The notes beneath the pieces were generated by a model. That model had not been told where the DNA came from and searched no databases. It worked only from the letters and a program-made list of their open reading frames with translations. DNA of 64,000 nucleotides from Rhizophagus irregularis. Taxonomy: Eukaryota. The stretch's first letter is position 1. The number at the start of each line of letters is the position of its first letter. Positions 25,369 through 62,413 of this stretch are shown piece after piece. Both the position numbers and the translations under genes were made by a program. The stretch spans positions 1,798,001 to 1,862,000 of the forward strand of contig NC_089433.1 in NCBI RefSeq assembly GCF_026210795.1, given 5' to 3'.

Positions 25369-27938
25369 CATCAGGAAGTCACGGGAAAAATGTTTATTAC
25401 ATGTACATTTTTGTAGATCATGTATATTATAATATTCATTATTTTAAATTAACATGTAATATTTAACATTAATGAGCATCATCAATGAGATTTTTATCAT
25501 GATGTGCAGCATTAAATAATGATAATTCAATATTTATCAAATTTATAATTTTTTATATTAGTGCACTAGTCAAAATAGACCATGATCTACGATTAGACAT
25601 TGGTCAAATAGTGCACTAATTAAAACGTCACGCGTTACGCATATTAAAAGTTTAAAAAAGGATCATCATCTTTTTTTAAACTTTTCATTCTCTTTCATCC
25701 TTCCCCTATCATCCTTCCTTTCCCCCCTTCCCTTCCTTTATCTTCCTTTCCTTTCCCTTTGTCCCTCCCTCCCTTTCGTCCTTCCCTTCCCCCTTTTCTC
25801 ACGCCTCTTTTTCTTGGAAGTAATGTAAGTTTCATTTCGAAACTTACATATTTTTTTTTAATTTATTTTTTTTTTAATTTAAAAAACAACTTAACATTTC
25901 TTATTGTTATTTTTTTGTAGGACGCGCACTAGGAGGACGCCAGCTTGAATACTACGAAACCGGACTTTAGGTAGTGAGAAATGGGAAAGGGGAAGAGATT
26001 TTTGTTATTTTATTTTAAGAAACGAACTAACGTTTCTTTTTGTTATTCTTTTTTTGTAGGACGTGCACTAGGAAGACGCTGGCTTGAATACTACGAAACT
26101 GGACTTTAGGTAGTGATAAATGGGAAAGGGGGGAGATTTTTGTTGTTTTTAATTTAAGAAACGAACTAATGTTTCTTTCATTATTTTTTTTTTTATAGAA
26201 CAAGGACGCCGGCTTGAATACGAAACCAGACTTTAAGGTAAAAAACTGGAAAGGGGGGATTGGAGGAAGGGGACTTGAACTAAGATTCGTAAGAATCTTG
26301 GTTTTATTTATTTTTTTTTATTATTTTAGAATAGTTACTAATAACCGTTCTTTTCTTTTTAGATTTCGGATGGACTTCCGATTTTTGGAAAAGGAGAAAC
26401 CAAGATTCGTAAGTACGTACGAATCTTGGTTTTTTATTTTTATTTTTTATTATTACGAACGGTTACTAATAACCATTTTTTTTTGTTTAGGTTCGGATGG
26501 GCTTCCGAATTCCAAAGAATGGAAGACTAAAGATTCGTAACGGTAAGTACAAATTTTTTTTTATTTTTTATTTTATGGAACGGTTTACTAACCGTTCCTT
26601 TCTTTTTTTTTATAGGTTTGGTGAGCTTCTGACGAACGGAAACCAAGATTCGTAAGAATCTTGGTATTTTTTTTTTATTTTATAGAACGGTTTACTAACC
26701 GTTCCTTTCTTTCTTTTATAGGTTCGGTGGGCTTCTGACAAACGGGGAACCAAGATTCGTACGAATCTTGGTTTTTATTTATTTTTTTTATTATTATGGA
26801 ACGGTTTACTAACCATTCCTTTTTTTATTTTTATAAGTTCGGTGTCTCAGAAGAATGGAAAAACCTAAAGATTCGTAAGTACTAGTACGAATCTTTTGGG
26901 TTTTTTTTATTTTTTTTAATATTACGAACAGTTACTAACCGTTTTTTTCTTTTATTTTTTTTTTATAGGATTGGGTGGTCTTCCGAAGAACGGAAAATAA
27001 TAAACTGAGGTTCGTAAGTATTTTACTACAAACTTTAGGATTTTTTTAATATTACGAACGGTTTATTAACCGTTCTTTCTTTCTTTTTTTTAGAGGATCA
27101 GGTGGATTTCTAAAGATCGGAAAAAGGAGAACTAAGGTTCGTAAGTATTATATTACGAACCTTAGATTTATTTTTTTTTAATGCTATGAATGGTTCTAAC
27201 CATTCTTTTTGTTTTATTTTTTAGATTTCGGGTAGGCCTCCAATCTTCGGATAAAGTGGAACCAAGATTCATGAGTACGAATCTTGGTTTGTTTATTATT
27301 TTTTTTTTTAAATATTATGGAACGGTTACTATTTACTAACCGTTCTTTTTCTTTTTTTTAGGTCTCAGGTGAATTTTCGAAGAATGAAACAAGAAGATCA
27401 AGATTTGTAAGTATATACAAATCTTAACGGAACGGATTAGTAAGTTTCGAAGTTTTACTTCAAAACTTTTTTTAAAATTTTTTTTTAAATTAATTTTTTT
27501 ATTAATTCTTTTTTTATCTTTTTATTGTTAGGTTGTACTTCTTGAACAAGTTTCGAAGAATAACTGAACTTCAAACCTTTTTTTGTAGGTCACGGAGTAT
27601 TTAGTTAATTAATATAAAGATTGTAAGTTTCGTTGCGAAGCCTACTGTCTTTTTTTCATTTTCTTTAACAGTTGTTACTTTTAATAATAGAAAAATTTAG
27701 CTAATATTATTGTTATAGTGTATTTAATAAAATAAATTCAATAATATTATAAATTTAATATGATGTTTATTATCTTTAAATAATGTACATCGTTAATAGA
27801 CATTAAAATTAGGTGATGCACATCGAATATTATGACATCGGTAGTACATTGCAGGGTCCGATGTTCAGCGTTTCTTTATAATGTACATCAAATGACCGAT
27901 GTACATTTGATAAACATTTTTCCCGTGACTTCCTGATG
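25369..27938. mobile_element. Non-autonomous TIR element A (TA TSD) carrying a micro-exon/intron array
   Basis: 29-bp perfect TIR CATCAGGAAGTCACGGGAAAAATGTTTAT; TA duplicated relative to empty site TACCTCTAAGAC in other copies; no transposase ORF. Confidence 0.93.
25690..27735 (+). ncRNA. Putative multi-exon non-coding transcription unit (about 14 micro-exons)
   Basis: CT-rich leader, then repeated donor (GTAAG/GTAG) - branch (CTAAC/CTAAT) - poly-T - YAG units; AATAAA near 27726. Confidence 0.55.
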
Positions 27939-30900
27939 TAAGACTTTACTTAAACGGTGTCCTTCTGAAGGATGTTTTTCTTATGTTCCGTTATCAAGTT
28001 TGATCTGTTATTCTACGAAACCTCATACTTATATACATGCGGATACTCGCTCAGTTTCACTTTCTGCATTGTTAGGCTATGCCAAATCTCTTTTATTATT
28101 TCATCTATTTGCTTCGGTTCGGCTACCTCCTGCGCTTACCCAAGCGTCCAGGATTTCTGATATCCAACTTCCTTCTTCGGTATCTATACTTTATATTGAT
28201 GGTTCCTTCCTTCCTCCTTCTAGTCATCTGGTATTTTCGATGGCCTATGCATAGACTGCTATAGATCCTGATGGGTTTATTTTGGAATCCCATTATAATA
28301 TCATTTCTTCCATTTTTCCATCTCCTTTACGTTCAGAAGTATTTGCTTTATTGCATGGATTGGACTCCCTCCCTCGGAATTCAAAAATTACTGTCGCCAC
28401 TGATTGTGCCCAATTACTTTCTTTATGGTCTTTATATGTGAATGCTCCTTTTATTCCCAGAATGCTTAAAGAATCCAACCACCTTTTGTGGTCTTCTATA
28501 CGCACTATTATGTGGCAAAAGAATCTGGATGTTTCCTTGATTAAGGTTCATGCTCACGCTGACAACCCTTTGAATAATCATGTGGATGTATTAGCCAAAG
28601 CTGCTCATACCGACTCGCATCTTTCTTCTCATCCATCATTGAAATTGCTAGCTTCTTGCATTTTACAATTTAATTTCTTACCTGTGGATATGAATATCCG
28701 GAAATTTATTAGAGATATTTTTGATGCTAAATGTCTTTTAACTCTTGCTGTATTACCAAGATTTAATTCCTCTTCTTCGATTTCTGATATCGATTGGGCT
28801 TGCACCAAATTTTGTCTCAATAACAATAAGCAATTTGTCTCTCATCAGAATGGCCGTTCTGAGTTTTGTAGTTTCCGTATCAAACTAATATTAGATATGC
28901 TTCTGACGCTTACAACTCTTCAGAGACAAAAGCCTCATCTTTACAATCCGAGTTGGCTTTGTCCTCAATGTAACTTTTCTCCTGAGACTTTAAACCACTT
29001 GTGGACTTGTCCTTATATTTTACCAGAATTTAGTCCTTTAAAAACTTTTAAAACACTACTATTGGCTCTTCGGACTACTTATCTTGATAACTTTCTTTCC
29101 GCGTCATCTTTTATCCCTTTACCGGACACTTTTGCTGCTGAATTTATGGCTCTTAATTGTTGGGATTGTGACCCTCCTTCAATTTCCTACTTACTGCTCG
29201 CAAGAGGACTTATACCGATATCTCTTACAGAATTTCTTGGAATCTATTTCTCTTCACCTACCATATGGTCTATCTTAGATACACCTTTGCATGACTTTCA
29301 TTTTGACCTTTATGTTCAAATCTGGTTGTGCCGGTCTATTTTCTTTCATCATTGGGAATCAGCTCAAGGCATTACTAATAAAATGAAATCGTTAGCTCTT
29401 GGGCCTTCTTCTATTTCTCGCTCTTCCTCTAACATTCCTCCTGATTCTTTGACACCTTCCTTGGCGACAGTTTCCTCAGATTCCTGGGTTTCCTGGGTTT
29501 CCTCTTCTATAATCCGTGAGGGATCTTGGATTTCACATTTGGATTTTTGGCGCCGTTTAACAGTTCAGCCTCTACTTAGGATTTCTTCTTGGTAACAGAT
29601 TGGATTTTAGGATATGCTGGATAGTTGACTCACACTGGCCTTCGGGTAAAGATGGGGTATGCGTTTCTGTAATAGTTTAGTTTTTCTTTACTTAATTTTA
29701 TTTTGTTTAGATTTCTTTACTTGTATGAATCGTGAAGCTAGTTCTTTTTATTTTTTGTTTAATTTTCTATATTTTGTAATATTGTTCGATTTGATTATTG
29801 TACTTTTCGTTTAATAATTATAATAAAAGATAAAGTTAAAAGACTGTTTGCTCATAATCACCAAATAAGAGGATCATCGCAACTCTTTCCTGAATTTTTG
29901 AAAATACTAATAAAAATTTATTTTTGAAATTTTCGTTTGAAAATTTCTAAGTGCTCGTTCAAAATACTAATATTTCCACAGTTGCTTTCCTCTTTACTGA
30001 GCTTTATACTATGACTACACCTCCAGCTCCTTCTGTTATTAACCCGAATATTCCGCCGCCACCGCGTCCTGTTGTTTCTACTCCCTCTGGAGACCGACCT
30101 TTATCTCCCACTAGTACCGCTGGCGCATCTAACAAACGTTCACGCGTTGTCTCTGATGACGCTATGAATGTTGATATAACTTCACCTTCTGCTTCGGCTT
30201 CCAACCTTATTTTTACCGCTCCCTCAGGCCTTCCTGTCAACAAAGTCCAAGTGATTACCTCTTTTCGTAATACTACTACTTCTGTTGAAACTATTGACGC
30301 TTCTATCCATGCTCCCTCTAACATTAATGGTAAAGGCAAAGCTGTTGCCTTCGATATGCCAGAGCGCTGACCCTCTCCCGATGGTAATGCGGCTGCTATC
30401 AAATCCGCACCTTCTCACTACCATGCTGCGGCCTATCTACGCGACGCGCCTGACACGTTCAAAGCTAAATTTACCACCAATCGCTCCATATGTGACGAAG
30501 TGGATTGTTCACTCTCCCGATATCCTTCTTATGGCGCCCGTGCACATTGCGATAGATCAGGCGATAACAAAAAGATCCTTGTCTTCTTCAATGATCAGCA
30601 TGATTTTACCGATTGTGTCAGCTCCCCGCATGCAGATCTTCTCAATTTAGCCTTTGTTCATTATTCCCCTGCAGATGCCAAACTCAATGATGAAGCAAAG
30701 TCTTTGTTTGTTACTGACATCCCACTCTTCCTGAATGAGATGCAAGTCCGCCAGGCATTTTCCTGATATGGAACTGTGATTAAATGCAAACTCACCCCTA
30801 AGAAACATTACTACAATGGTCATATCCAGTTTTCTTCTGTGGATGCAATTGCCCAATTTGATGATATTTGGGCGATCATTTGCCTTGGTAATTCCTTACG

Positions 30901-33649
30901 TGTCTGCCCGGCATCTTTTTCAAAATGCCAACATGACAGCCGTAGAGAATATGTTGCTATTCTTGCCAGCATTCCAAAAAATATTAAAGAAGCCGACCTT
31001 TTTGAAATTGCTAATCAAGTTAATGCTAAAGCCCTTAACGTCCCACTATCTATTAACTCTTACAAGCCTAAACCCTACGCATACTTGAATTTTTCTTCAT
31101 TTGACACTCTAGAAGCTGTAAAAGAAATGACCGTAGCTTTCCATGGCAAAGGGTTGATATGGCACCCTCCCAATGAAGCACATACTTTATGCCATGTTTG
31201 TGGGCGTTCTGGTTGTTCACCTTCTGTTTGTAGTCCTTGTCCTACACGAAAAGTGGATGATCACCTTAACAAATTATATTCACGCTTCAATGCTGGTTCT
31301 TGACGTGGTCATCAGAATTCACGCCAACCGCGTGATAAATCCAATTCCCGTTCACGATCGCGATCTAATTCCAGATTTCGCAATCCATCTTCTTCATTCC
31401 GATCTAATAACAGTAATAACCGTACTAATAATACTCGTCCTGATACTTCTCGTAGTAACAACTGAACCAACAGCAATAATAATAATAACATTCCCAATAA
31501 CAATGGTTATTCTTCCGGTTCTATTCAACCTCCACCTGAGCCTCGTCCTAATAATTCTACTACACATATCTCTTCTTCTGACAATTCTGCTTATACACTT
31601 CTTCAACATATCATTGATGAGTTAAAGGCGCAGATTAAAGAGATTGCTACTACCCTCAAATCTCTTGATGAAACGGTCTCCTGGATGCAGGATACTATCA
31701 CGAATCATGATTATAGAATTTCTGAGCTCGAATCAATGATGAATTATGATAGCGGTAATCCTGGTGACTCAGATTTGTACCCACCTCATGATGATCAAGA
31801 AACTCATTCCTATAATAATGGATGGGATGATGCCCCAACCCAGGACACGAATTCAGGATTCAACCTTCTTCCTCATACTGCACCCTCTCTTATTGATACT
31901 TCTCCTGATGCTTCTTTTTCTACTTTGGATCCTAACTCTGTCTTATCACGACGACATGTCCCCTTACTTAACTCTCGACCTACTATTATTGCCCCTGATG
32001 CTAATGCTTTCCGTCTGCAATTGGAAATTTCTAATGTTACTAATACCCAAAAGAATCTTTCTGCCCAACTTGGTTCGATTATGAATAAGTTGGACTCCTT
32101 CTCCCCCTCAAAACCTTCCCCTTCTAATGATTGAACACCAACTTGATTTGGGTGATTTACAGGGACTTCACCCCCCTGACAGTGTGTTACCTGATAGTCT
32201 TAATAGCAAGATCCCTTCCTTTTCTCCTTCCCCTCTTATTAATTTTGGACAAATCAATGTTAATGGTTTATGTTCCCCTGTTAGACAATTGCACTTGTTA
32301 AATTATTTCTTGCATTCCTCATTTGGTGTTTTATCTCTAAATGATACTCGTCTTACTTCATCTAGTGCTAAATTTATTTATCAAAATGATCATTCCCAGT
32401 ATAATTTTAAGTCCTATTGGGCTCCTTTCCCTTCTAATTCATGACATCATGATGGTGTTGGTCTTTTACTTCGCCATCCTTTACATAAACATGTTCAGAA
32501 AATTGATCCCTGGAAAGGTCGTCTTTTAAAATTAGATCTTTTTTTCCATCAAACTAAAATTTCTATTATTTCAGTTTATATTCCTCCTTATCATTCTATT
32601 CATTATAAAGAACGTGATGCTATTTTTGCTCAACTTAATTTATGGCTTGATAAAGCCCGCTCTAATAACTATCACGTAGTCATCCTTGGTGATTTTAATG
32701 CAGATGAATTTTCACATTCACATCTTCCTCAACATCATTTAAAAATTTTACGATTACTTTCTTCTCGATATTTTACGGATCATTAATCCCATATTTCCTC
32801 AACTTCAGGTCCTAGTCCTACCTTTTATCATCAGAATGGTTCTTCACGACTTGATTATATTTGGTCATCCCCTGGATTTCCTGCTCCTGGTCTTTTCTCT
32901 CAAGTTGAAACTTGTCCTAAGCTGAACGATAATCAATTTACTGATCACTGTGTACTTATAACGGCCTTTGATTTTAGTTCTTGTTTCGCTACTTTAGCTA
33001 AAGCTAGATTAAAGCAGAAAAGCGAACAACGCACCATTTTTCTCTACAAGAATTTAAAAGAAGATATTTGAAAAACATTTTCCAATGAAGTAAACTCACG
33101 TCTTGAGTTGTATTTGACCACACACCATCCCTCTATATCTTTACTTTCAGCTCTTCCTTTGGACAAACTTTGGCACGCTCTTAAACGTTCTATTCTTGGT
33201 GGTGCCATTGACTCTCTACCATTTCAACATGTATCCAATACTCACCATCATAAATATTCTCCTGAGCTTACTAAGCTTATTGCTATCAACAAATTTTTGG
33301 ATAGATTATTGTTTAAATTGACCACATCTAGGCCTACACTGGTCAAAATCAATTCTATCGGGTACATATCGGGTACCTATATATCGGTGGCTAATCGGAT
33401 AAGTATCGGGTATTTTTACATATCGGGTACCCGATAGCTAAGCTATTAGTCACTGATATTGTATATCGGGCATTGATCTATCTTACACATATCAGGTACC
33501 CGATATGTAAATTTTAATACGTAAGATTTTTATTTTGTACAACGTACTGTATTATATATAATCCGTTTCAACTAAAATTTTTTATTTAAATTCATTTTTT
33601 AGATAATTTTTATAAATAATTTTCTAAGAAATTTTAAAAGTCCATTTGA

Positions 33650-36600
33650 ATAATATTTAATAGGGATTTTATTTAAGAAACTTTTAGATAGATTTTTTTG
33701 AGAAATTTTTTAAGAGTCCGTTTGGAAAAATTATTTTTTTAACTAAGAGGATCATTTAGAGCATTTTTGATAGAGAATTTTCTAAAGATTTGTTTGGAGA
33801 GATTATTTTTGAGAATTTTTTAACTAAAGGGACCGTTTGGAACATTTTTTGATAGAGAATTTTCTAAGAATTCGTTTGGGAAATGGTTTTTTGAGAATTT
33901 TTTAACTAAAAGGATCATTTGGGCATTTTTTGATTGAGAATTTTCTAAGAGTTCGTTTAGGGAAATTATTTTTTGAATTTTTTAATTAAGGGGATCGTTT
34001 AGGGCATTTTTTGATTGAGAATTTTCTAAGAGTTCGTTTAAAGAGATTATTTTTGAGAATTTTTTAACCAAAGGGACCGTTGGAACATTTTTTGATAGAG
34101 AATTTTTTTGATAGAGAATTTTCTAAGAGTTTGTTTGGAAAAATTATTTTTTGAGAATTTTTTAACTGAAGGTATCATTTGATAGAGAAATTTCTAGGAG
34201 TTCGTTTAGGAAAATTATTTTTTGTATTTTTTAATTAAGGGGATCGCTTAGGACATTTTTGATAGAGAATTTTCTAATGATTTGTTTGGAGAGATTGTTT
34301 TTGAGAATTTTTTAATTAAAGGGAACGTTTGGAACATTTTTGATAGAGAATTTTCTAAGAATTTGTTTGGGAAATGGTTTTTCAAAAATTTTTTAACTAA
34401 AAGGATCATTTAGGGCATTTTTTGATTGAGAATTTTCTAAGAGTTCGTTCAGGGAAATTATTTTTTGAATTTTTTAATTAAGGGGATTGTTTAGGGCATT
34501 TTTTGATTGAGAATTTTCTAAGAGTTCGTTTAGGGAAATTATTTTTTGAATTTTTTAATTAAGGGGATCGTTTAGGGCATTTTTTGATTGAGAATTTTCT
34601 AAGAGTTCGTTTAGGGAAATTATTTTTTGAATTTTTTAATTAAGGGGATCGTTTAGGGCATTTTTTAATAGAGAATTTTCTAAGAGTTCGTTTAGGGAAA
34701 TTATTTTTTGTATTTTTTAATTAAGGGGATCGTTTAGGGCATTTTTTGATAGAGAATTTTCTAATGATTCGTTTGGAGAGATTATTTTTGAGAATTTTTT
34801 AACCAAAGGAACCGTTGGAACATTTTTTGATAGAGAATTTTCTAAGAATTTGTTTGGGAAATGGTTTTTTGAGAATTTTTTAACTAAAAGGATCATTTAG
34901 GGCATTTTTGATTGAGAATTTTCTAAGAGTTCGTTTAGGGAAATTATTTTTTGTATTTTTTAATTAAGGGGATCGCTTAGGGCATTTTTGATAGAGAATT
35001 TTCTAATGATTCGTTTGGAGAGATTGTTTTTGAGAATTTTTTAACTAAAGGGAACGTTTGGAACATTTTTGATAGAGAATTTTCTAAGAATTTGTTTGGG
35101 AAATGGTTTTTCGAGAATTTTTTAACCTAAAGGATCATTTAGGGCATTTTTGATTGAGAATTTTCTAAGAGTTCGTTTAGGGAAATTATTTTTTGTATTT
35201 TTTAATTAAGGGGATCGCTTAGGGCATTTTTGATAGAGAATTTTCTAATGATTCGTTTGGAGAGATTGTTTTTGAGAATTTTTTAACTAAAGGGAACGTT
35301 TGGAACATTTTTGATAGAGAATTTTCTAAGAATTTGTTTGGGAAATGGTTTTTCGAGAATTTTTTAACCTAAAGGATCATTTAGGGCATTTTTGATTGAG
35401 AATTTTCTAAGAGTTCGTTTAGGGAAATTATTTTTTGTATTTTTTAATTAAGGGGATCGCTTAGGGCATTTTTGATAGAGAATTTTCTAATGATTCGTTT
35501 GGAGAGATTGTTTTTGAGAATTTTTTAACTAAAGGGAACATTTGGAACATTTTTGATAGAGAATTTTCTAAGAATTTGTTTGGGAAATGGTTTTTTGAGA
35601 ATTTTTTAACTAAAAGGATCATTTAGGGCATTTTTGATAGAGAATTTTCTAAGAGTTCGTTTGGGGAAATTATTTTTTGTATTTTTTAATTAAGGGGATC
35701 GCTTAGGGCATTTTTGATAGAGAATTTTCTAATGATTCGTTTGGAGAGATTGTTTTTGAGAATTTTTTAACTAAAGGGAACGTTTGGAACATTTTTGATA
35801 GAGAGTTTTCTAAGAATTTGTTTGGGAAATGGTTTTTTGAGAATTTTTTAACTAAAAGGATCATTTAGGGCATTTTTGATTGAGAATTTTCTAAGAGTTC
35901 GTTTAGGGAAATTATTTTTTGTATTTTTTAATTAAGGGGATCGCTTAGGGCATTTTTGATAGAGAATTTTCTAATGATTCGTTTGGAGAGATTGTTTTTG
36001 AGAATTTTTTAACTAAAGGGAACGTTTGGAACATTTTTGATAGAGAATTTTCTAAGAATTTGTTTGGGAAATGGTTTTTCGAGAATTTTTTAACTAAAAG
36101 GATCATTTAGGGCATTTTTGATAGAGAATTTTCTAAGAGTTCGTTTGGGGAAATTATTTTTTGAATTTTTTAATTAAGGGGATCGTTTAGGGCATTTTTT
36201 GATAGAGAATTTTCTAAGGATTCGTTTGAAGAGATTATTTTTGAGAATTTTTTTAACTAAAGGGAACGTTTGGAACATTTTTGATAGAGAATTTTCTAAG
36301 AGTTCGTTTGGGAAATGGTTTTTCGAGAATTTTTTAATTAAAAGAATCATTTAGGGCATTTTTTGATAGAGAATTTTCTAAGAGTGTGTTTAGGGAAATT
36401 ATTTTTTGAATTTTTTAATTAAGGGGATCGTTTAGGGCATTTTTTGATAAAGAATTTTCTAATGATTCGTTTGGAGAGATTATTTTTGAGAATTTTTTAA
36501 GCCAAAGGGATCGTTTGGAACGTTTTTGATAGAGAATTTTCTAAGAGTTCATTTGGAAATGGTTTTTCAAGAATTTTTTAACTAAAAGGATCGTTTAGGG

Positions 36601-37230
36601 CATTTTTTGATAGAGAATTTTCTAAGAGTTCGTTTGGAAAAATTATTTTTTGAGAATTTTTTAACTAAAGGGATCATTTGGGACATTTTTGATAGAGAAA
36701 ATTCTAGGAGTTTATTTGGGGAAAGTATTTTTTGAGAATTTTTTAACTGAAGGTATCGTTTGATAGAGAAATTTCCAAGAGTTCGTATAGGGAAATTATT
36801 TTTTGAATTTTTTAATTAAGGGGATCGTTTAGGGTATTTTTTGATAGAGAATTTTCTAAGAGTTTGGGGAAATTATTTTTTGAGAATTTTTTAACTGAAG
36901 TATCGTTTGATAGAGAAATTTCTAAGAGTTCGTTTAGGGAAATTATTTTTTAAATTTTTTAATTAAGGAGATCGTTTAGGGCAATTTTTGATAGAGAATT
37001 TTCTAAGAGTTTGTTTGGAAAAATTATTTTTTAAATTTTTTAATTAAGAGGATCGCTTAGGGCATTTTTGATAGAGAATTTTCTAAAGATTCGTTTGGAG
37101 AGATTATTTTTGAGAATTTTTTAACTATTTGGAACATTTTTTGATAGAGAATTTTCTAAGAGTTTGTTTGAAAAATTATTTTTTGAGAATTTTTTAACTG
37201 AAGGTATCATTTGATAGAGAAATTTCTAAG
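33650..37230. repeat. Satellite array, ~81-bp monomer (two ~40-bp halves) with 242-bp higher-order repeat
   Basis: GAGTTCG anchor at 34441, 34522, ~34603 (81 bp) and at 34927, 35169, 35411, 35653, 35895, 36137 (242 bp). Confidence 0.92.
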
Positions 37231-37695
37231 ATAATATAGTTATTGAGTATGATATATACTTCCGATGGTGTATAGTAATAAAATTCTAAAAACCGTTCAT
37301 TGTATATTATAATCCAAGTACTTACAATTCATATCTTTTTCGTTTATATAATTATCATTCGGTAAATCATCTTTGATGTTTTGTCCCTATAATAATATTG
37401 AGAAAAGTTAATTTATCATTAATTTCGTCATAATAAGAGAAGTATAGTGTAAAAAAACTATACTGTATAGATAAAAGGGGTACTGTATAAAATAAAAACT
37501 ATACTGTATAAAATAAAAAACTATACTGTATAGATAAAAAATTATACTGTATGGATAAATATAGATTTTTATCAACTATACTATACAACATCGGAGGATT
37601 CGGAGGTATATTTCATACTCAATATCGTTTAACCAGAAATGGATGCTATCGGGTATTCAGTATATCGGTATATTTGATTGGCCGATCTACACATC

Positions 37696-39160
37696 TTTTT
37701 TGTAGATTCCGGGTAAGTGTCTCGAAAAATTTTGTTTTTTATGTAAGAACGTTCATTAACGTTCTTTTACTGCTTTTTTTTTTGTAGATTTCGGCCGGAA
37801 CTTGGAAATGGAGACCGGTGAGTATTTTTAAAAGGAGGAAGCAAGTTTTTTTTTTGGTTTTTCATATGTAAGAACGTTTATTAACGTTCTTTTACTTTTT
37901 CCTTTTTGTAGATTTCGGCCTGCGAACTTGAAATTAGGATCAGTAAGAGGGAAAGCAGGAGATTTTTTTATGTAAGAACGTTTATTAATGTTCTTTACTT
38001 CTTTTTTTTGTAGATTTTAGCCTGCAATTCGGATATGGGGACCGGTGGGTATTTGAGAAGGAGGAGGTTTTTTTTTTTTATGTAAGAACGTTTATTAACG
38101 TTCTTTTATTTTTTTTGTAGATTTTGGCCTGGAACTCAGAAATAGAGACCGGTGGTGAGTATTTTTAAAGGGAAGAAGCGGATTTTTAAATTTTTCTTTA
38201 TGTAAGAACGTATATTAACGTTCTTTTATTTTTATTTTTTTTGTAGATTTCGGCCCGGAACTCAGAAATGGAGACCGGTGAGTATTTTTAAAAAGGGAAG
38301 TGGGGGTTTTTTATTTTATTTATGTAAGAACGTTTATTAACGTTCTTTTATTTCTATTTTTTTTGTAGATTTCGGCCTGGAACTCAGAAATGGAGACCGG
38401 TGAGTATTTTTAAAAAGGGAAGTGGGGGGTTTTTTATTTTATTTATGTAAGAACGTTTATTAACGTTCTTTTATTTCTATTTTTTTGTAGATTTCGGCCC
38501 AGAACTCAGAAATGGAGACCGGTGAGTATTTGGAAAAGTAGGGGTTTTTTTTGTTTTCTTTATGCAAGAACGTTTATTAACGTTCCTTTACTTCTTTTAT
38601 TGTAGATTTTAGCCCGGAACTTGAAAATGGAGACCGGTGAGTATTTCTAAATGTTTTTTTATATTTATTCATGTAAGAACGTTTATTAACGTTCTTTTAC
38701 TACCTTTTTTTTGTAGATTTTAGCCCAGAACTCGGAAATGGTGACCAGTGGTGAGTATTTTTAAAGGGAGGAAGCGGATTTTTTTAATTTTTCTTTGTGT
38801 AAGAACGTTTATTAACGTTCCTTTACTTCTTTTTTTTTGTAGATTTTAGCCCAGAACTTGGAAATGGAGACCGGTGAGTATTTCTAAAAGAGGAAGTTAT
38901 TTTTTTATATTTCTTCATGTAAGGACGTTAATAATGTTCCCTTTCTTTTTTTTATCATTTTTATTAGGGACATGGATTCTTGGATAATAATACAAACTGT
39001 AAGTTGAGTGGATGAAGGAGATTCTAAATAATTGTGATATTATGAAAAATCAGTGATTTAACTTGTTGACTGGTATATGTATGATAGGCTACCGATAGGT
39101 ACCCGATATATGACTAATTGGTATATTTAAGTAGGGTTTTGTATTATTTAAAGTAATAAA
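37696..39160 (+). ncRNA. Putative micro-exon/intron array (about 11 units of ~120 bp)
   Basis: Unit: TTTTGTAG|~31-nt exon ATTTCGGCCCGGAACTCAGAAATGGAGACCG|GTGAGT...AAGAACGTTTATTAACGTTCTT...poly-T; AATAAA at ~39155. Confidence 0.6.
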
Positions 39161-42100
39161 GAGTTTAACTTGCAGTGTAATTCTAGTATAAATAGTATAA
39201 ATGCATTTTATTAATTATAATAATCCGGATTGATATGTTGGGGTTAAAATCCATGGCCCAATCAGAATTTGTTGTTGTAATCAGGCGATTGATCACATGA
39301 TTTCAGTATTTATATTTCGCACTTTGTTTATTTTTTTTTTCCTTTCGTAAAAACCTTTCTCTTAAACTTTTTATTTAAAACAAACTCTTTACTTAGTTAT
39401 TATGAAATAATATTATTATTATATTTTTTTATTTATTTTTATATTAGAAATAAACATAAAGGTATATTTTTATTATGCTCGTTTTTTCTTTTATATATAC
39501 ATTTTCTATTGACGTTCTAATACTTTTTTTCTTTTCTCTCACTAATGTTTTCTACCACTTATTAACATTTTCTATTAATATTAAATACTACTAACATGTT
39601 TTTATTAACATTCTCGTATTAATATTTTCTATTTTACTAACTTTTCTTTCTTCCTACTAACATTTTTACTAATATTTTCTATATTTACCACTAACGTTTT
39701 TATTAATATTTCTATTTTTATTTCTCTTATTAATTAATATACTTACTAATATTTTCACTAATATTTCTTTTAAATGTTAAACAGATAATTTTATTATCAT
39801 TGTTACTTTTAGTAGAACTTTACATATTACATAGTATAATTATTTATTTTTAATGTTCAACTTTATTTGATTTTACGTATGTAGTAGATAGAGTAAGATT
39901 TGTATTATTGTTTAAATTTTAATAAAGTTGAATTTCATTTTATCTGAATTAAAATAAAAAAAAGAGATATATGTCTATTGGTTTTATATGAAATTTATAG
40001 CTACTAACTGATGTATTACAAATATTTTACTACCCGATATATGTGTGTTAAATATATGATATTTATAATATATATCACTGATATTTGACTACCCGATATG
40101 TATAAGATATATACATGATGTTTACAAGATATGTCACCGATATTTGACTACCCGATATGTATAAGATATATACATGATGTTTACAAGATATGTCACCGAT
40201 ATTTAACTACCCGATATGTGTAAGATGTATACATGATGTTTACAGTATATGTCACCGATTTTCTACATTTCTACTACACATATCGGGTACCTGATATGTG
40301 TGGTATTGTTAAATATCATACACATATATCACATATATTATACACATATCAGGTACCTGATATGTACCCGATAGTATTGATTTTGACCAGTGCTAGTCGT
40401 CCTGCTCAAATTTCACAACTGATTAATTATCCATCTACCCAATTAATCCTTCTTAAATCTCTTTTAACAGATTATACTATACCTTCTTATAGTACAACAC
40501 CACTTCCTAATTTTGTCAAATTCTTGCGTTCACAAAAAGCTTTGGTCTCAGCTTATCTTTTCACGCAATTTCATCAACATTGTGTAGATTCCATTGAATA
40601 TTATACTGCTCTTAGAGATGAACATTTCTCTACATCTCCGGGCTCCTTTATTTCTTCAGCCCTTTCAGTGGAACATCGTTCTATCGTTCTTGATAGAGTC
40701 TTGGTTGTTATTGACTCTAAACCCACTTTACTTACTGATCCTTCAGATATCAAACAAGCTGCTATTAAACACTTCCAATCGGTTGTTACTCCTCCTTTGG
40801 TCCAGTATTCTTCTATAGATTCATTTCCTCCACGATAGCAAAGAGCATATACCCCTCTTTCCGATATTGATTCGTCATTATATAACTCGGTCATGTCTCC
40901 TATTTTGGAAGATGAATAGAAGAATATTCTCAATTCTATGCCTAATAACAAAGCCTCTGGTCCTTCCAAAATTTCTTATGAGATGCTCAAACATTTAACT
41001 GGCGAAGCTTTCAATTTATCCCTTATTTTAGCTAATGCCTGCCTCATTCATGGAGATATTCCTGCTGATTGGTGTGAAGCGCTTGTTTATCCCATTCCAA
41101 AGCCTCATGAATTTGACGCACAATTAAAGAATACGCGACCTATCACTTTATTGGAAACTGTACGAAAATGTGTGGTTAAGATCATTACAACTCGTCTTTC
41201 AAAAATCCTAGCTGACAACCAAGTGCTCCAAGGTGGTAATTTTGCTGGATTGCCAGGCGGTTCCACTGACATTCCTATTAAGATGCTTGATGCTATTCTT
41301 CATCAACGCCGCTTTGACAAAACTGATGACCAAGATTTATGGATTGTTTCTCAAAACATTTCTAAGGCCTTTGACTCAATTGATTTAAACATGCTTAGAC
41401 TGGCTTTAATTCGTCTGCATATTCCGTCTTTATTGATCAAATTTATTATTAACCATTTTACAAGACGTAATAATAAAATTATTACCCATTATGGTGATAC
41501 TTCTGGATATAGAGTTAGAATTGGTATTGACCAAGATGAAATCATTTCTCCATTATTATGGGTTATTTACTTGGATCCTTTGCTTACTACACTTAATCGA
41601 GAAGCTTGTGATCCCTTTATTTTGAAATCTTCTGCATTATTGTATTATTCTCCAATTGAATATGAACAACACAATCTTCCTGTTTCGCATATTACATTTA
41701 TGGATGATTCTACTTTAATTGCTTCATCTAAACGAGGAATTGAAGATCGCCTTTCCATTACTGCTGAATTTTATACTTTAAATAATACTCAAGCCAATTC
41801 AGCAAAATATATTCTTCTTTCTTCTGAACAATTTTCTCAAACTATTATGTTTGATCTTTCTCCATCCCCTCTAATTACATCTCATACCCTTACTTTAAAG
41901 GCATTAGCCTTATCTACATCTTTTCGATTTTTAGGTGTTTGGTTTAATCTTTTGGCTTCTTCTCATTTTGTTCACAACCAAACTGTTTCCATGGTCAAAA
42001 ATATGGCTGTTTTACTTAGTCTTAAAAAACTTTTGGCACAACATGTGGCCTATCTTTATAATATTGTTTTACTTTCGAGGCTAGAATTTCGCCTACAATC

Positions 42101-45822: not shown

Positions 45823-45837
45823 ATAATCACCAAATAA

Positions 45838-47669
45838 GATTCTCTCATGGAAAGATTTACGTTTCCTTAAACGAGTATCGAACAAAGGACCTGTGCCTGC
45901 TTGGTTTAATTATTTATTTAATCTTATTGTTATTCCTAATTCTCCTTATTTATTTGTTTTATCACAATTTAAAATTCCTATTTCTCATACTGTAGTTTCT
46001 ATTTCTTTTATAGACATTAGTCGAAATTATTGGTTTAACCCTCAATGGGCTATTTCTTTTAATCGTAATACTAACTCCTTCCTTGTTGGCCGTGTGATTA
46101 CTACCTATTCTGCTCCACGTAATGAAGCTCTTATTTCACATTGATGATTTGCTTTCTGATTTTACTGCATGCCAAGGTTGTGCCTCTGCTATTCCGCGAT
46201 CCTCTACCTCTAAGACTTTGATTAAATGATGTCCTTCTGAAGGATGCTTTTCTTATATTCCGTTATCTAGTTTGATCCGTTATCCTACGAAACCTCATAC
46301 TTATATACATGTGGATACTTGCTCGGTTTCACTTTCTGCCTCGTTAGGCTTTGCCAAATCTCTTTTATTATTTCATCTTTTTGCTCCAGTTCGATTACCT
46401 CCTATGAATAATTAAGTGCCTAGGATTTCTGATATCTGACTTCCTTCTTCAGTGTCTACGCTCTATATTGATGGTTCCTTCCTTCCTCCTTCTAGTCATC
46501 CGGTATCTTCGATGGCTTATGCATAGACTGCTATAGACCCTGATGGATTTATTTTGGAATCTCATTATAATAGTATTTCTTCCATTTTTCCTTCTGCTTT
46601 ACGTTCAGAAGCTTTTGCTTTATTACATGGATTGGACTCCCTCCCTTGGAATTCAAAGATTACTGTCGCCACTGATTGTGCCCAACTACTTTCTTTATGG
46701 TCTTTGTATGTGGATGTTCCTTTTATTCCCAGATTGCTTAAAGAATTCAACCACCTTTTGTGGTCCTCCATACGAACTATTATGTCACAAAAGAATCTGG
46801 ATGTTTCCTTGATTAAAGTTCCTGCTCACGCTAACGATCCTTTGAATAATCATGTGGATGCATTAGCCAAAGCCGCTCATATTGACTCACATCTCTCTTC
46901 TCATCCGTTTTCGGAATTGTTGGCTTCTTGCATTTTACATTTTAATTCTTTACCTGTGGATATGAATATCCAGAAATTTATTAGAGATATTTTTGACGTG
47001 AAAAGTCTTTTAACTTTTGCTATATTACCAAGATTTAATTCCTATTCTTCAACTTCTGGTATCGATTGGGCATGCACCAAATTTTGCCTTAATAACAATA
47101 AGCAATTTGTCTCCCATCGGAATGGCCGTTCCGAGTTTTGTAGCTTCCGTATCAAATTATTATTAGATATGCTTCCAACGCTTACAACTCTCCAGAAACG
47201 AAAGCCTCATCTTTATAATCCGAGTTGGCTTTGTCCTCAATGTAACTCTTCTTCTGAGACTTTAGACCACTTGTGGACTTGTCCTTATATCTTACCAGAA
47301 TTTAGCCCTCTAAATACTTTTAAAGCACTACTATTAGCTCTCCGGACTACTTGTCTTGATAAATTTCTTTCTGAGCCATCTCTACTACTTTTACCAGATT
47401 CCTTCGCTGCTGATTTTAAAGCTATTGATTATTGGGATTGTGATCCTTCTTCAATTTCCTGTCTGCGACTTACACGAGGACTTATACCAATATCTCTTAC
47501 AAAATTTCTTGGAAATTATTTTTCAACATTTACCATATGGTCTATTTTAGATACTGACGAATTCAATTTTTTCATAATGCCTTGAGCTGATTCCCAATGA
47601 TGAAAGAAAATGGAACAGCACAACCAGATTTGTACATAAAGGCCAAAATGAAAGTCATGTAAAGGTGTA
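45838..47669 (+). mobile_element. LINE copy 4, 5'-truncated, last ~115 bp inverted, 3' end missing
   Basis: Begins directly after the 15-mer at a position equivalent to ~16607 of copy 1; forward to 47554; 47554-47669 is the reverse complement of the next LINE segment. Confidence 0.9.
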
Positions 47670-50600
47670 CTTTGCTAAAAATAGCTATTTTTTCGAAATG
47701 CTTTTGATATAGCTATAATATTATTTTTATATGGTTTTAATGCATTTCATATGCATTTCGTCAACCATTAAAAGCATGTTATCTAGGCTTATAATTTTAT
47801 TGCGAAATAATGTGAAATAGTTCTGCAATTATTTATACTTGTTTTCGTAATAGTTTTTGTAATAGTTTTAAAATAGCTTTATAATTTATTTATAATGAAT
47901 TTATAGTGAATCTATAATACAAATGTAATAATATATTTTCAATTGATTTTTAATTGTTTTACAAATGTTAATACAAATACTATAACACTTATAACACTAT
48001 AGTAAAATTTATTCTGATCTGATGGTTAATTCGTAATAGTATCTACTGATCGTATTTTTCCCGGTACACGTTCTGCAGTTAGACCATTTAGGTCACCATA
48101 CACCTTTCACGTGACTGCATCCACCACTTTAAAATACGAAACCTACAAAATAGTTAAAGAAATGGTCAGTATACTGTTTCTTTAATTAAAAAAGTAAGAT
48201 TTCGAAGTTAAAATTTCAAAACTTACCATCCACTCATCCTGAAAGCAGGATTCCTAAAAGCTAAACTGTTTCTAATAGCGTTTTGAAATTTTATTTGGGA
48301 ATCCAGAGCCGAAGTCCCTACAAAAAAAGAAAAATATTGGTAAAAAAATTTCTTGGGCTATTTTCTAAATCTTTCAGATACTCACTCAGAATCAACAATG
48401 AATCTAAAATTTGACGCCGGATAAAAGAAAATGTTAAAGTTCCTATGTTCCAAATTCTTCTGAGATATACCTACGATTAATCAAAAGCTGAAGACCTATA
48501 AAAAAAATAAATAACAAGTTAATAACATTGTCTTTAAAAAAGGAAATTTGGAATTTTCGTTAAAAAAGTGCTTACCCGCTCTACAAATGTTCTATAAAAG
48601 AAAAAAACTGTTTTAAAAAAAAGCTTTTAAAAGAAGTGTTTAAAAGTGCTTCAGTGGTTTCCTACAAAAAAATAAAAAAAAGTTAATAAAATGACTTCTT
48701 ATTATAAAAAAAGGTAATGTTTTCGAAATGAAAACTTGCCTCTCCATTCTTTTTAAAAATATTATTATCCTTCATTTCTCCTTTCCCCTCCTTTAAACGC
48801 AAATATATTTTTTTATAACACTATTATCTTGTTCACAAACGTAATAGGAAAAAAGTCTATACTTTAATCCACATAATAGGAAAAAAAAGTTTAAAAAGTA
48901 ATCCCTATTTCTGAAATCAGAACGGGACACCTACAAAATAGAAAATAAAACAATAAATAATTTTTACATAAAAATTTATTTACTAAGTTTTCGAAATGAA
49001 AAATTACCAGGGCATTCGACTTCTTCAAAGTTCGAGTCGGATTCCTACAAAATAAAAAAAAAAGAATAAAAGAAACGTTAGTAAACATTTCGTTTCGTTA
49101 AATAAAAAAAATTGACAAAAGCACATCTACCTATATCCAGCATATCCAAAAATCCGAAATCAAAGCCGAAGAAGATGTCATTGAAATCAAAAACTCAGAA
49201 AGTCGGAAAATACTAGCTGTCTAAAAAAAAAAAAGAAAAAAAAAACGAATTGTTAGAACTTTTCGTTGAAATACATAAATTAAAGAAAAAAAGTGAAATC
49301 TGAACGAACCTTACACGTCCAAAGTTATCCAAAGAAACCCGAAGAGCTAGCAACCTAAAAAAAAGAAAAAAATGAACTATTAGTTACAGTCCGTTAAAAT
49401 AAATAAATCAAAGAAAAAAAATAAATACCAAAACTCACGCGTCCCACACGTCTGAAGACCTAGCCGAACTTTTAAAGTTCTATATTTCTTTTTTGTATCA
49501 GAAAATACTACTACGCGCTAAAGACCCGAAGATCTGGAATGGTCCCACCAGCGTTCTGATATTCTCATTAATTCAAATTCCATTGCCCATACCCACGCGT
49601 TAAATTTCCCGAAATCTACAAAAGAGAATAGACGAAATGTTAGTGAACGTTTCGTTAAAAGAATTAACAAAACTCCCTCCCCCTTACCGAGTTTTCTACG
49701 CGTGCGTCTGAGGTCTGGAGCCTACAAAAGAAGAAAACCGAAATGTTAGAAGTTTCGTTGAAAAAGATTATTTACAAAAGCCAAAAATTCCCCTCACTGA
49801 AATTCCATGCGTCTAAGACTGACCGTTTACAAAAGAAAAAATGAAACGTTAGTAGCCGTTTCGTTAAAATAAAAATATTTTTTCAAAAAAACGTCTTACT
49901 AACGTCTGACCCAAAAAAGAAAAGAAACGAACTTTAATAAGGTTTGTTAAAAATAGAAAAATTAATAAAAAAAATTGTCTTACTGAAATCCCGAACCAAA
50001 AAGCCGAAGAAACTCGCCCGTCCAAAGAAATCCAGAAAACCGTCTAAAAAAAAAAGAAAACTCGAAACTTTAATAAACGTTTCATCAATGAAAATACGAA
50101 AGAATACACTCTCCTGACCTCCCCCTTTTCTACCTAATTTCAATGCAATCCGACTATCTAGAAAAAGAAAAAACGAATTTTTAAAAAATCATTTTTTAAA
50201 ATAAAAAAATGAAACAAAAAAATTAATTACTTACAAAATGTCGCGTCCAGGAAGACCGGTAGAACTATCTAGAAAAAAGATCAGTTTGTTTAATAGAATG
50301 TATGGGAAAAAGGGAAAGGAAGGGAAAGAGAACGAAGGAAGGGGAAAGAGAGAACGAAGGAAAGGGAGAGGGAAAGAACGAGAGAAAAGGAAATAGGAAA
50401 ATCAGAAAGGACGAAGTGCAGGAAAAAGTTAAAAAAAAGCTTAACTACCGCAGTTATTATTAATATGAATCACGTGGTATCACGCGATCACGTGATTTTT
50501 ATTTTATATAAATAGGCCTTTTCTCCCGAAATCCAATTTTTTTTTTTATAATTTTTTAATGATATATATATATATGCTTATATACACACATATATATATA

Positions 50601-51144
50601 TCTAATAACTTTACGAAAAGCCCCTCCTCTGTAAACAGGTAGAGGTCTTTAGTACCTATAGGGGGAGAGCTATTGCTGCTTCTCCATCTGTTTATAGTGA
50701 CAAAAAGAGGAGTCTTCAGTAGTAAAGTTTAATGCAATTACCATTTCAATATAATTTCATATAAAATATAATCATTGCAATACAATTTCATATATATTAA
50801 GATATATAAACCATTGCAATACAATTTCATATTAAGATATATAAACCATTGCAATACAATTTTATATTAATATTATAAATATTGCAATACAATTTCATAA
50901 TAATTTCAATTTATAATTATATTATTAATAATAAATCAATTACAAACACCATTGCAACATAATATTTAAATTGTTTTGAAATTATGGTTTGTAATACTTT
51001 TATTAGCCTTTGTGATATAATCTTTGTAATTAATTGCAAAATATATAAAAACAATTTCAACCATTACAAAATAATGTCAGTATTGCAAAAGTATAATAAG
51101 AATATTATAAAAGTATTTCAAAAAAATAGCCATTTTTAGTAAAG
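47670..51144. mobile_element. Non-autonomous TIR element D (probable 8-bp TSD) with a minus-strand micro-exon/intron array
   Basis: CTTTGCTAAAAATAGCTATTTTTTCGAAATGCTTT vs AAAGTATTTCAAAAAAATAGCCATTTTTAGTAAAG; flanks AAGGTGTA/AAGATGTA (7/8); CATTGCAATACAATTT subterminal repeats 50770-50960. Confidence 0.8.
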
Positions 51145-51683
51145 AAGATGTACTGATACTTTAGGTTACACTGGTATTAATTTGAGTCAACACTATGAAT
51201 TTGGCCAGAGTTACTAAACATAAAGGTTCCATCCAAATCACATGACATTTTAATATATTAGCTATCCAGAGTTTACATAATGCTGGTAAGAATTGGATTT
51301 TGGCCCGCATTATGATTCACTGATGATGGTTATGTAACGATAATTTGATATACTGATATATTTTTCCTAAAACAACAGTATTGGTACATAGAGGTCCGAC
51401 TGTATTTATAATTTGAGATATCTTTATATCATGGTAGGATCCACAAAATATATATAAAGGTCACATATAAGTTTGCTTAACTATATTAGTAAAATTTCCA
51501 AAAGTCATATACGATCCAAATTAATTAATTAATTTAATATGGAAAATTTTATTTGCATAGATTTTGAGATTTTTTAAAAGGTTATATATATAGTTTGCAT
51601 AATAATAATCATTTTTATATATGTCATATATTTTAATTTGCATAATCAACGGTATTTTTTAATAAAATATATATATATATATA

Positions 51684-51912: not shown

Positions 51913-52696
51913 TACACATAGTATAATACATAAATTTTTGAAAATACATAATTGACGGCTAATCTGATTGATAATAGATAATTTTTTTTCAATTTTTTGA
52001 CTTTTAACAGACCATTTTATTGAAAGAAAAAAATAAAATAATTTTTTTTGGTCTGTAATAAACCATTTTATTCAATAAAAATTTTTTTTTGACCTTTACT
52101 GTTATATTTTTTTAACAACAGGCCATTTTATTTAAAAAAAATATTTGGTTTAGAATGTTATTAATATTCCTTTTTATTATTTTTCTTTAAAAGCAACTTC
52201 TTAAATCTAAAATTTATTATTTTAGATACCAATATCTTAGAAAAATATGAGTTAAGAGAAAAGTATAGTCAATTTTTTTGGAAATATTACTATACTAATA
52301 TTCCTTTTACTTTTTTTTTAGGAACTTGGAATTCAGACTGGAACTCCAATGCTCACTGTAAGTAAAGAATTTTTTAGCTTTATTTTGTTTATTTTAGAAG
52401 TATTATTAACATTTCTATTGTTTTTTCTATTAGAAATAGTTTTTAGATTAAAACTAAACTGAAATTTTTAGTAAGTTGAGAATAGGGTGGAATTTTTTTT
52501 GTTTTATATGTGAAAGTAGTATTAATATTTTTTTCTTTAGAAATAGGATTTTCTTTTAGAAATGATTTTATAAATTATATTGACTTTTCTTTAACTTTAA
52601 AATGTTATCAATATTCTAAGTTTTTGTTATAATTTATTAAAAAATAATGAACAATCTTTTTGTTTTAGTGTTAATACTTGAATTATCAAATAATTA

Positions 52697-59042: not shown

Positions 59043-59295
59043 TTTTTTTTTTTTTTTTTTTTTCCGCAGCGCATTTGCAGTTTTATTAAAGTAAAAAAAT
59101 AAAGAAAATATATACAAAGTAAAATTCCCTAATAACTACTCTAATATAATTAAACTACAAACCACTCGTTATACCAGTAGTACCCCACGTGTGCACTGTT
59201 GAGTGATCGTTTGACTCCGTAGGTAGACTTCGTTTAGTAACAGGTCATCTTAGCCATAAAGGCCCTATCTTCAATGTCTGGTGATTACGGGACCC
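59043..59295 (-). mobile_element. Possible short retroposed 3' fragment
   Basis: ~20-nt T-run followed by TTTATT (minus-strand AATAAA) and a GC-richer 140-bp block; TSD only approximate. Confidence 0.35.
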
Positions 59296-60640: not shown

Positions 60641-61189
60641 TTATATTTGATCTTTTAAATTTTAATGATATCTTATATTAAAAAAAAATTAAAAATTATA
60701 TAATTAATTAGTTTTTTTTGCATTATCTAGTATAAATTTATTATTCTTATATAAATGATAATTTATATTTGCTTTAATAAAATTATTTTTGTGTAAAAAA
60801 ATTAGATTTTAAGGATTGGCTCATATGATTTAATATCTTTAATGTCTTTTTAGTAAAAAATCTATAAAATTCTGAAGTTATCTTTAAAGGATATCATGAA
60901 ATAAAATTGTACTATAAAAAAAAGAAACATTTCAGAAAAAAAATAATTAGAAGCAATATATATATATATATATATCAAAAAAAAAAATCAAAATATTAGA
61001 AATAATGTCCCTGAGAAAGTAAAATAAAGCAAAATTTCAATATTAATCAATTAAATAAATGTAAATAGATTAGAAAATAAAAAAGAGAAATGAATCTTCC
61101 ACAATCTGATAGTTGTATAACTTTTGTATAATTCTGCCGTAATATCGTAATTCCATCATAATGTTTTAATATCACAATCTTAATGCTGT

Positions 61190-62413
61190 AAAATGTCCTA
61201 AAAATAGAAAAATTTAGAAAAATTAAAAATAAACGCTTCCTATCCTCCTTTAAGTCTCTTTATCTCATCAGCATAAAGTCTAATTCGTCCATTTCAACCC
61301 CAAAAAGCCGGCGTCTCTATAGTAAAAGAAAAAGAAACATTAGAACGTTTCTTAAAAATAAATTTAAAAAAAACACTACTCCCACTTTACCTCATCAAGC
61401 TAAGTCCATTCCAAGAGTCCAGTGCTACAAAAAAAAGAAAGAACGTTAGAAACGTTCCTTAATTAACACATACCATTCACCCCATTTACCTGTCCTGCTG
61501 TCTTGTTTGTTTAAGTTTAGCATCCTATAAAAGAAAGTGTATCTAAAAAATAAATAAAGTATTTATATAAAAAAAAAGAAATAAAAAGAAATTTCAGATA
61601 AAAAACCAAAAAATATATGAAATAAACCCATATCTTTTACTAATTACCAGTATCGGGATCTCATGCAATCTAAATTAAAAATATTGTAAAATAAATCAAT
61701 ATTTGAGTATGCTACACAACAAACAATAAAAACAAACTGCCTACTTTATTAACACGAATAGGCTTCCCATACAACTTGATTTGATTCATTATTTTAATCT
61801 GCATCATCTTCATTCGTAAACTCACAAAACTCAATCTTGATGTGTTTGAGTTATGCAATCTTTTGGTAAATGAACATTGACTTGAAGTTAAAATATATTT
61901 TCTGATTAGTAATGCTGAATTTATAACAAAATAAAATGAGCAGAGAGAGTGAAAATTACCAACATGTCCTCTGCCAGAAGTATTAACTCCTAAATCAGAG
62001 TTTCAGTACAATATTCATCAAAGGTTACTGATATAGACCATAGCGTTTTGATCACATTCTTCTGTAGGATGAGCCATAATATTAAAGAAAAAAAATTTTT
62101 GACGTTAAAGAATCTTTTCCATTCTTTGGAAGCCCACCCGAACCTAAAAAAGTAAAGAACGGTTATTAGTAACCGTTCATAATAAAAAAAATTAAAAAAA
62201 TATATATATAAAAATAAACCAAGATTCGTACTTACAAATCTTGGTTCCTCTTTTCCCAAAAATCAGAAGCCCACCCGAAGCTTAAAAAAAAGAAAGAACG
62301 GTTATTAGTAACTGTTCATTAATATTAAAAAAAAATTAAAAAAATTAAACCAAGATTCGTACTTACTTATAAATCTTAGTTTTTCTGTTTTTCAGAACAT
62401 GAAAGCCCACCTG
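61190..62413 (-). ncRNA. Micro-exon/intron array related to element A, cut by a CACTG-ended insertion
   Basis: GAACGGTTATTAGTAACCGTTC (62157-62178) and ACCAAGATTCGTACTTACAAATCTTGGT (62218-62245) mirror element A unit motifs on the opposite strand. Confidence 0.55.

Follow-up and report, generated by a model that had tools for sequence, protein, structure and literature searches.

In a stretch of 64,000 nucleotides from Rhizophagus irregularis (NCBI RefSeq assembly GCF_026210795.1, contig NC_089433.1, positions 1,798,001 to 1,862,000 of the forward strand), hereafter the window, and in related soil-metagenome loci, we show that DNA transposons of at least four end types carry, on the inner side of their ends, conserved arrays of spliced, structured introns. 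The arrays are made of micro-exons alternating with mini-introns. Three of those in the window lie in transposons with different ends, which we call elements A, C and D. Transcription of the array in C yields a polyadenylated RNA that is spliced and non-coding. We lean, with some reserve, towards the view that the arrays are a module likely to act in cis and to yield spliced, terminated RNA that does not provoke silencing. Positions below are those of the window, counted from its first nucleotide.

Structured-intron arrays in elements with different ends

The units of an array follow one order: an exon, the sequence GTAAGT, GTGAGT or GTAGTG, a purine-rich stretch or a 5'-site hairpin, a hairpin round the branch motif YTAAC, a T-rich tract and YAG. 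The branch motif occupies the loop and 3' arm of the second hairpin, which is conserved and contains G-C pairs. The repeat period, as determined with Tandem Repeats Finder, is 107-139 bp for A and 122 bp for C. A strict scan of the window, for a perfect stem, 6 bp or longer and with two or more G-C pairs, over YTRAY, followed by a poly-pyrimidine tract and YAG, returned 21 sites (seven in A, nine in C, two in D and three in a last array close to the end of the window) and none outside the arrays. The same scan of 100 dinucleotide shuffles gave a mean of 0.52 sites (standard deviation 0.69, maximum 2); the units of one array are tandem copies, and the 21 sites are therefore not independent of one another. 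At least four distinct stems were seen, namely GAACGG/CCGTTC, AAGAAACG/CGTTTCTT, AAGAACGTT/AACGTTCTT and ACGAAA/TTTCGT.

An earlier note on this DNA had placed arrays in A, C and D, a degenerate one in a region called F and another at 61190-62413, and had described a branch-point hairpin common to arrays whose exons differ. The sequence bears out both statements, the second also in the exon clusters of the metagenome loci described below. The looser pattern that it proposed, GAAC-N-CTAAY, is not enriched, with 11 matches against 11.6 expected. Its remark that exons often start with ATTTCGG or GTTCGG applies to five of the ten C array exons and to about five of the nine exons of the A2 type.

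The window is AT-rich (21-42% G+C in 2-kb steps), holds almost no intact host genes and is dominated by several copies of one retroelement resembling a long interspersed nuclear element (LINE). Elements A, C and D are inserted in or beside these copies, and because one LINE copy is uninterrupted, the insertion sites of A and C can be read exactly. None of the three elements encodes a transposase.

Element A (25369-27938, + strand) is non-autonomous, with terminal inverted repeats (TIRs) at 25369-25408 and 27899-27938 (42 nt, 95% complementary) and a target duplication at 25367-25368 and 27939-27940. The empty site CCTCTA/AGAC in the uninterrupted LINE copy, set against CCTCTA-(A)-TAAGAC, identifies the duplication as TA. 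A TA duplication together with TIRs is what defines TA-targeting Tc1/mariner-type elements, and with no transposase in A its superfamily is unproven. The A array (25826-27671, + strand) comprises about 14 predicted introns. Three units are of type A1, with the stem AAGAAACG/CGTTTCTT; about nine are of type A2, whose 5' splice site lies within a hairpin of 9-14 bp and whose branch site lies within GAACGG..CCGTTC. Ahead of it, the stretch 25640-25825 (+ strand) has an ACGT-box, a TATA-like stretch and then a CT-rich tract of about 100 nt before the first 5' splice site; from its sequence it is a candidate for either a promoter or a splice acceptor.

Element C (33337-40392, + strand) is of CACTA type, with termini CACTGG...CCAGTG, TIRs at 33337-33378 and 40351-40392 (42 nt at 95%) and a duplication at 33334-33336 and 40393-40395 that the comparison of the empty site GGCCTA/GTCG with GGCCTA-(C)-CTAGTCG shows to be CTA. 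Termini of CACTA/G type, a 3-bp duplication and ATCGGGTAC-type subterminal repeats are all features of CACTA/EnSpm elements; we class C as non-autonomous since it encodes no transposase. Within it the array runs from 37713 to 39087 (+ strand), and a typical branch-site hairpin, one of the nine strict matches, is AAGAACGTT-TATT-AACGTTCTT at 38326-38347 (+ strand). The TATT-loop hairpins, both here and in a metagenome locus (L068), contain AATAAA on the opposite strand, so that each unit would supply a polyadenylation signal to outward transcription. Between the left end of C and its array lies a 3.5-kb satellite (33735-37231; unit of 81 bp, higher order of 242 and 484 bp, about 43 copies), and a small inverted-repeat element (37240-37625) is nested just upstream of the array.

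Element D (47670-51144, - strand) has TIRs at 47670-47727 and 51087-51144 (58 nt at 76%); an 8-bp duplication probably flanks it, at 47662-47669 and 51145-51152. D is non-autonomous and, by duplication length and TIR only, hAT-like. Its flanks, AAGGTGTA and AAGATGTA, agree at seven of eight positions, so the duplication is only probable; an inverted LINE fragment (47555-47661) separates D from a truncated LINE copy on its left and leaves no empty-site control. The D array (about 48100-50300, - strand) is built of about 16 intron-like units. Their exons are heterogeneous, and their branch hairpins belong to the ACGAAA/TTTCGT and GAAACG/CGTTTC types; two pass the strict scan and about eight pass by eye. 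Upstream of it, at 50310-50500, are a CT-rich tract and CACGTG boxes, an arrangement that resembles the one ahead of the A array only weakly. The claim of the earlier note that the carriers have different ends is thus upheld in the window by TA, CACTA and 8-bp types, the last being probable (7/8).

We considered homology between the promoter regions of A and D, and among the tails of A, C and D, and rejected both, as alignment gave low-complexity likeness only and no evidence of homology. Two further regions complete the set. F (about 52283-52560, + strand) holds decayed array remnants with AT-only stems and two or three intron-like units. The last array (61197-62412, - strand) has A2-type units at 62143-62412 and other units at 61197-61460, and is 70-75% identical to parts of A. 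It had been listed beside the arrays of the other elements; being A-like, split by a gene fragment and cut at 62413 by an element starting CACTGGTCAAAAACC, it represents no independent carrier type.

Splicing of the array in element C

RNA reads were mapped on 37300-50540, which covers C and D, from three polyA runs of one study and a fourth run of another. In every one of the four runs, 11 predicted C introns in a row were spanned by GT..AG joints, and each intron had about 60-270 junction reads per run. The joints listed are 37816>37911, 37942>38014, 38043>38120, 38276>38368, 38398>38490, 38520>38605, 38635>38716, 38749>38842, 38872>38967 and 38998>39088; the introns 37713-37787 and 38155-38246 are not among the joints listed as single introns. 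Joints that skip or repeat whole units were seen as well, and these may come from other copies of the element with different unit numbers. The fourth run is labelled genomic; depth in the flanking LINE is near zero in all runs, so we take this run to be RNA and its joints not to be DNA forms.

The transcription unit extends over 37650-39320 (+ strand), with an approximate start placed at the depth step. Its 12 introns measure 71-94 nt and its array exons 30-34 nt. RNA depth rises from about 9 upstream of the array to about 90-130 over 37742-39509 and drops thereafter, and in the flanking LINE it is close to 0; read ends accumulate at 39320. We considered a protein-coding role for this RNA and rejected it for this copy, since the spliced form has stops in all three frames and no long open reading frame (ORF), and the product is thus a non-coding RNA. 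The earlier note had spoken of a caged-intron design. Caging in the sense of a block is not supported for C, where the introns are removed in polyadenylated RNA and are therefore used. Reads over the nested inverted-repeat element show a fixed difference, G>A at 37361, and must derive from other copies.

Relatives in soil metagenomes and conservation of the stem

Soil-metagenome contigs were scanned with the C stem, the loop being left unconstrained, and 96 stretches were returned. At least two hairpins occur in 33 loci, spaced mostly 99-130 bp apart or by multiples of this, and some 15-20 single matches in ORF-dense or GC-rich contigs look like chance. A poly-pyrimidine tract and YAG follow within 45 nt of the hairpin in 95 cases at 54 loci, and the exons behind them form 29 clusters. 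The identical 18-nt stem is present at these 95 intron-context sites as well as in the window. In 93 of the 95 hairpins the free loop ends in CT or TT, which joined to the first stem bases makes the branch motif YTAAC (YT+AAC). Every copy seen, in the window and in the metagenome loci, belongs to a non-coding tandem array within a transposon; none was seen in a coding gene. The undecayed C exons (31 nt) and the exons of L068 (48 nt) contain no stop codon in any frame.

ORFs beside the arrays encode hAT transposase domains in seven loci and Mutator-like (MULE) transposase domains in two. Dimer_Tnp_hAT matched at E = 1e-16 to 1e-20 in L021, L025, L030, L031 and L068, and DUF659 was found in L021, L030, L044, L068 and L077, mostly below the Pfam cut-off; the MULE domain matched at E = 1e-21 in L038, where the arrays are inverted, and at E = 4e-21 in L011. 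Throughout these nine loci the arrays point toward the transposase ORF (14 of 14 blocks). Four contigs show both ends (L068, L030, L021 and L038), and in each of them one array is an inverted copy of the other, with 261 nt at 99% in L068 as the best case. From outside to inside L068 consists of flank, short GATTGATCGGATT repeats, a T-rich acceptor-like site, the array, an AATAAA-rich spacer and the transposase gene, so that the short subterminal repeats sit outside the array. Loose Pfam scans of the other array-adjacent ORFs gave nothing above threshold.

The module had been thought particular to non-autonomous elements, but autonomous ones carry inward-pointing inverted arrays at both ends. 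A, C and D, with a single inward array each, fit this plan and probably arose by internal deletion, with one array retained. Outside their arrays, A, C and D have no match in the metagenome loci; therefore, only the intron module is common to the different element families. Of the two origins offered by the earlier note, a swapped cassette or convergent selection, the identical stem across superfamilies, autonomous hAT and MULE elements included, favours shared ancestry with exchange and speaks against convergence.

Two of the loci have ORFs with weak matches to Tet/JBP-type oxygenases beside their arrays (L045:2411-3838, - strand, E = 4e-7; L050:2281-3192, - strand, E = 0.03), both below Pfam cut-offs, and the array adjoining the one in L045 has C-like exons. 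Tet/JBP-type genes travel with CACTA-related elements in other fungi. Another element type, at L013:1-420, has GGTCC/GGACCG subterminal repeats, NUDIX- and HMG-like ORFs and an inward-pointing array at its end.

Compensatory substitutions have preserved the stem, in keeping with the selection on intron design that had been proposed. We scored compensation at the two CpGs of the stem, across the hairpin copies of the metagenome loci and the window. Double changes restored pairing in 17 cases (12 locus counts) and failed to restore it in two. Single changes comprised 10 TG and 11 CA, and with such equal rates neutrality predicts about 1:1 for double changes. Among 24 distinct hairpins, three of the nine pairs have changed on both sides, giving nine double-change cells against 2.7 ± 1.3 in shuffles, with 0 of 500 shuffles reaching that number. 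The 5'-site hairpin of A shows paired changes too: AAGATTCGTA/TACGAATCTT, AAGGTTCGTAA/TTACGAACCTT and AAGATTTGTA/TACAAATCTT.

In predicted folds the A2 unit (z = -4.0) has its 5' site inside a 14-bp stem, and the poly-U tract of the C intron (z = -2.2) pairs with a G-rich segment. The hairpins are present in the centroid folds, and that of C is found in both the minimum-energy and the centroid fold.

Possible function, precedents and neighbouring features

A mechanism can be sketched from these parts. The hairpin would display the branch motif and, with a closing stem, would fold each intron on itself; the hairpin together with the G-rich segment paired to the poly-U tract is predicted to have this effect. 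An intron folded in this way could let each 5' site join its own branch site amid identical tandem sites. With such a module, transcripts arising at the element ends would become well-spliced and terminated and would not trigger silencing; the array could buffer the element against antisense or read-in transcription, and against any defence that senses whether a transcript is spliced. We suggest that the selective benefit would be protection from, or insulation against, genome defence. A bolder proposal, which we put forward tentatively and think rather improbable as it stands, is that transposons of several superfamilies have acquired and exchanged an inward-facing 'splice me' module, made of self-folding introns at both ends that would engage the spliceosome, whose transcripts would be treated as self, in effect a splicing-based counter-defence. 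The step in which a defence reads splicing is drawn only by analogy with published host systems.

Several points weigh against a cis-acting module of this kind. The metagenome loci were ascertained through the stem itself, and array units, like copies within one family, are non-independent. RNA depth over element D is only 1-17, with no D joint among the joints listed, and element A, with its very stable 5'-site hairpin, may go unspliced, the RNA evidence being that of C only. The C array RNA may come from an own promoter or from read-in transcription. The ordinary introns used as controls are few, nine of them were delimited by eye and none comes from a confirmed host gene in its native place. 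Finally, the single CpG changes show no G-U wobble bias and so do not prove that the pairing takes place in RNA and not in DNA; what favours pairing in RNA is the context of splice signals and loop motif, not the wobble test.

One could see the array instead as a multi-intron 5' leader of the transposase gene, serving intron-mediated expression or translational control, kept after internal deletion and copied to the far end by long inverted repeats. L021, L031, L011, L044, L030 and L068 do have one array upstream of the transposase ORF on the same strand, and 120-138 reads per run share the last C exons with different upstream sequence, which fits a longer gene in other copies. However, arrays stand at either end, half of them in antisense orientation to the gene; the only array visible in L025 and L077 is the convergent one; in L021 about 545 nt and an AATAAA separate the array from the ATG, with no acceptor seen just before the ATG; and the C RNA terminates at its own site. 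A leader function strikes us as unlikely. A different possibility is that the palindromes work as DNA, either by binding proteins or forming cruciforms that transposition needs, or by making up a satellite that expands itself; splicing would then be incidental. Such a role would suit the position of the arrays in subterminal inverted regions, the perfect, CpG-rich palindromes and the single changes free of wobble bias. Templated correction of quasi-palindromes, moreover, could mimic compensation. Yet the same palindrome occurs in elements with unrelated transposases, and GT, YTAAC, the poly-pyrimidine tract and AG are all retained with it, the branch motif in 93 of 95 free loops. Separate short subterminal repeats that fit transposase binding, such as the ATCGGGTAC motifs in C, lie outside the arrays, and protein half-sites would not be expected to show compensation. 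We give a DNA-level role a low probability.

It is just as doubtful, in our judgement, that the hairpin is this organism's ordinary intron style and not specific to transposons. The comparison with host introns that the earlier note had called for was made on 13 ordinary introns only (nine gaps in hAT genes, the RNA-proven terminal intron of C and three in the SF3B4 gene fragment described below), in a window with almost no intact host genes. The branch-site hairpin was found in none of the 13, the three that were folded had z = 0.0 to 0.5 and were no better than shuffles, and strict matches outside the arrays numbered zero in 64 kb. The design might also be one that the host exploits, with sequestered splice sites stalling spliceosomes and feeding small RNAs against transposons, as the available excerpts of PMC5851062 describe for Cryptococcus. 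The 5' site of A2 within a 14-bp stem and the branch A at a stem edge would suit such a trap. Against this, the C introns are efficiently spliced, their RNA is abundant and polyadenylated, and compensation inside selfish elements argues for a benefit to the element; we regard a host trap as very improbable.

Several known systems resemble the arrays in part. The classical subterminal repeats of hAT and CACTA elements are short transposase-binding motifs. Like them, the arrays are repeated units, inverted near both ends and retained by non-autonomous derivatives; in contrast, the array units are 100-140 bp long, carry full splice signals and are common to several superfamilies, and short motifs exist outside the arrays. 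MuDR has promoters in its terminal repeats that drive convergent protein-coding genes. The inward-facing units at both transposon ends are alike, whereas the array product is a spliced non-coding RNA. Ds and dSpm have cryptic splice sites that remove the element from host mRNA. There too the spliceosome uses sites borne by a transposon, but those of the arrays are consensus sites in a self-contained multi-intron unit and cannot excise the element.

Introner-like elements of fungi are near-identical spliceosomal introns in many copies with stable predicted structure, according to the available excerpts of PMC3609843, and the array introns share these traits. An introner, as set out in the accessible parts of PMC11282704, is a small transposon in itself: its TIRs and target duplication lie where intron meets exon, and its copies are scattered through protein-coding genes. 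The array introns, unlike these, start GTGAGT or GTAAGT and end TTGTAG with no inverted ends and no flanking direct repeat, and are arranged in tandem with non-coding micro-exons inside larger transposons. They fall outside the introner definition, as far as those excerpts give it, in their borders. A rationale for intron content mattering to a transposon is provided by the intron-based discrimination of self from mobile DNA by HUSH in humans (PMC8770142) and by the stalled spliceosomes on transposon introns that feed RNA interference in Cryptococcus (PMC5851062), both as far as the excerpted text goes. These are host systems of humans and Cryptococcus, however, and nothing in our analysis shows one here; the C introns, moreover, have consensus signals and are not suboptimal or inefficiently spliced. 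Full-text literature searches, with subscription journals and repeat-database entries outside their reach, found no published description of such arrays.

If the arrays are indeed a cis-acting module, splicing signals would be cargo that transposons keep and share, and not merely something that transposons disturb. The arrays would offer a natural system in which to ask whether fungal genome defence reads intron content, would show RNA structure pairing identical splice sites correctly in a tandem array and would bear on the origin of repeated structured introns. Whatever their function, they will appear in annotation as multi-exon non-coding genes or be mis-joined to neighbours. The hairpin motif is also a simple marker for the transposon ends of this lineage in soil metagenomes.

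Wedged between the pieces of the last array is a degenerate fragment of an SF3B4 (SF3b49) gene (61650-62080, - strand), with ordinary introns of its own. It matches SF3B4 residues 61-90 at E = 4e-4 and has a start codon, stops and frameshifts. SF3B4 is a protein of the U2 small nuclear ribonucleoprotein and binds near the branch site. The fragment looks like a captured gene piece, and its tie to splicing may be coincidence.

A search of the whole window against Rfam gave no match at the gathering score. PolyA RNA depth is very high at 44372-45255, the junction between two LINE copies, with a maximum of about 530 (both mate orientations summed), in contrast to the near-zero depth of the LINE bodies. 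Beyond the last array, at 62413-64000, two stretches in the same orientation start with CACTGGTCAAAAACC, at about 62414 and about 63669, the first being the one that cuts the A-like array.

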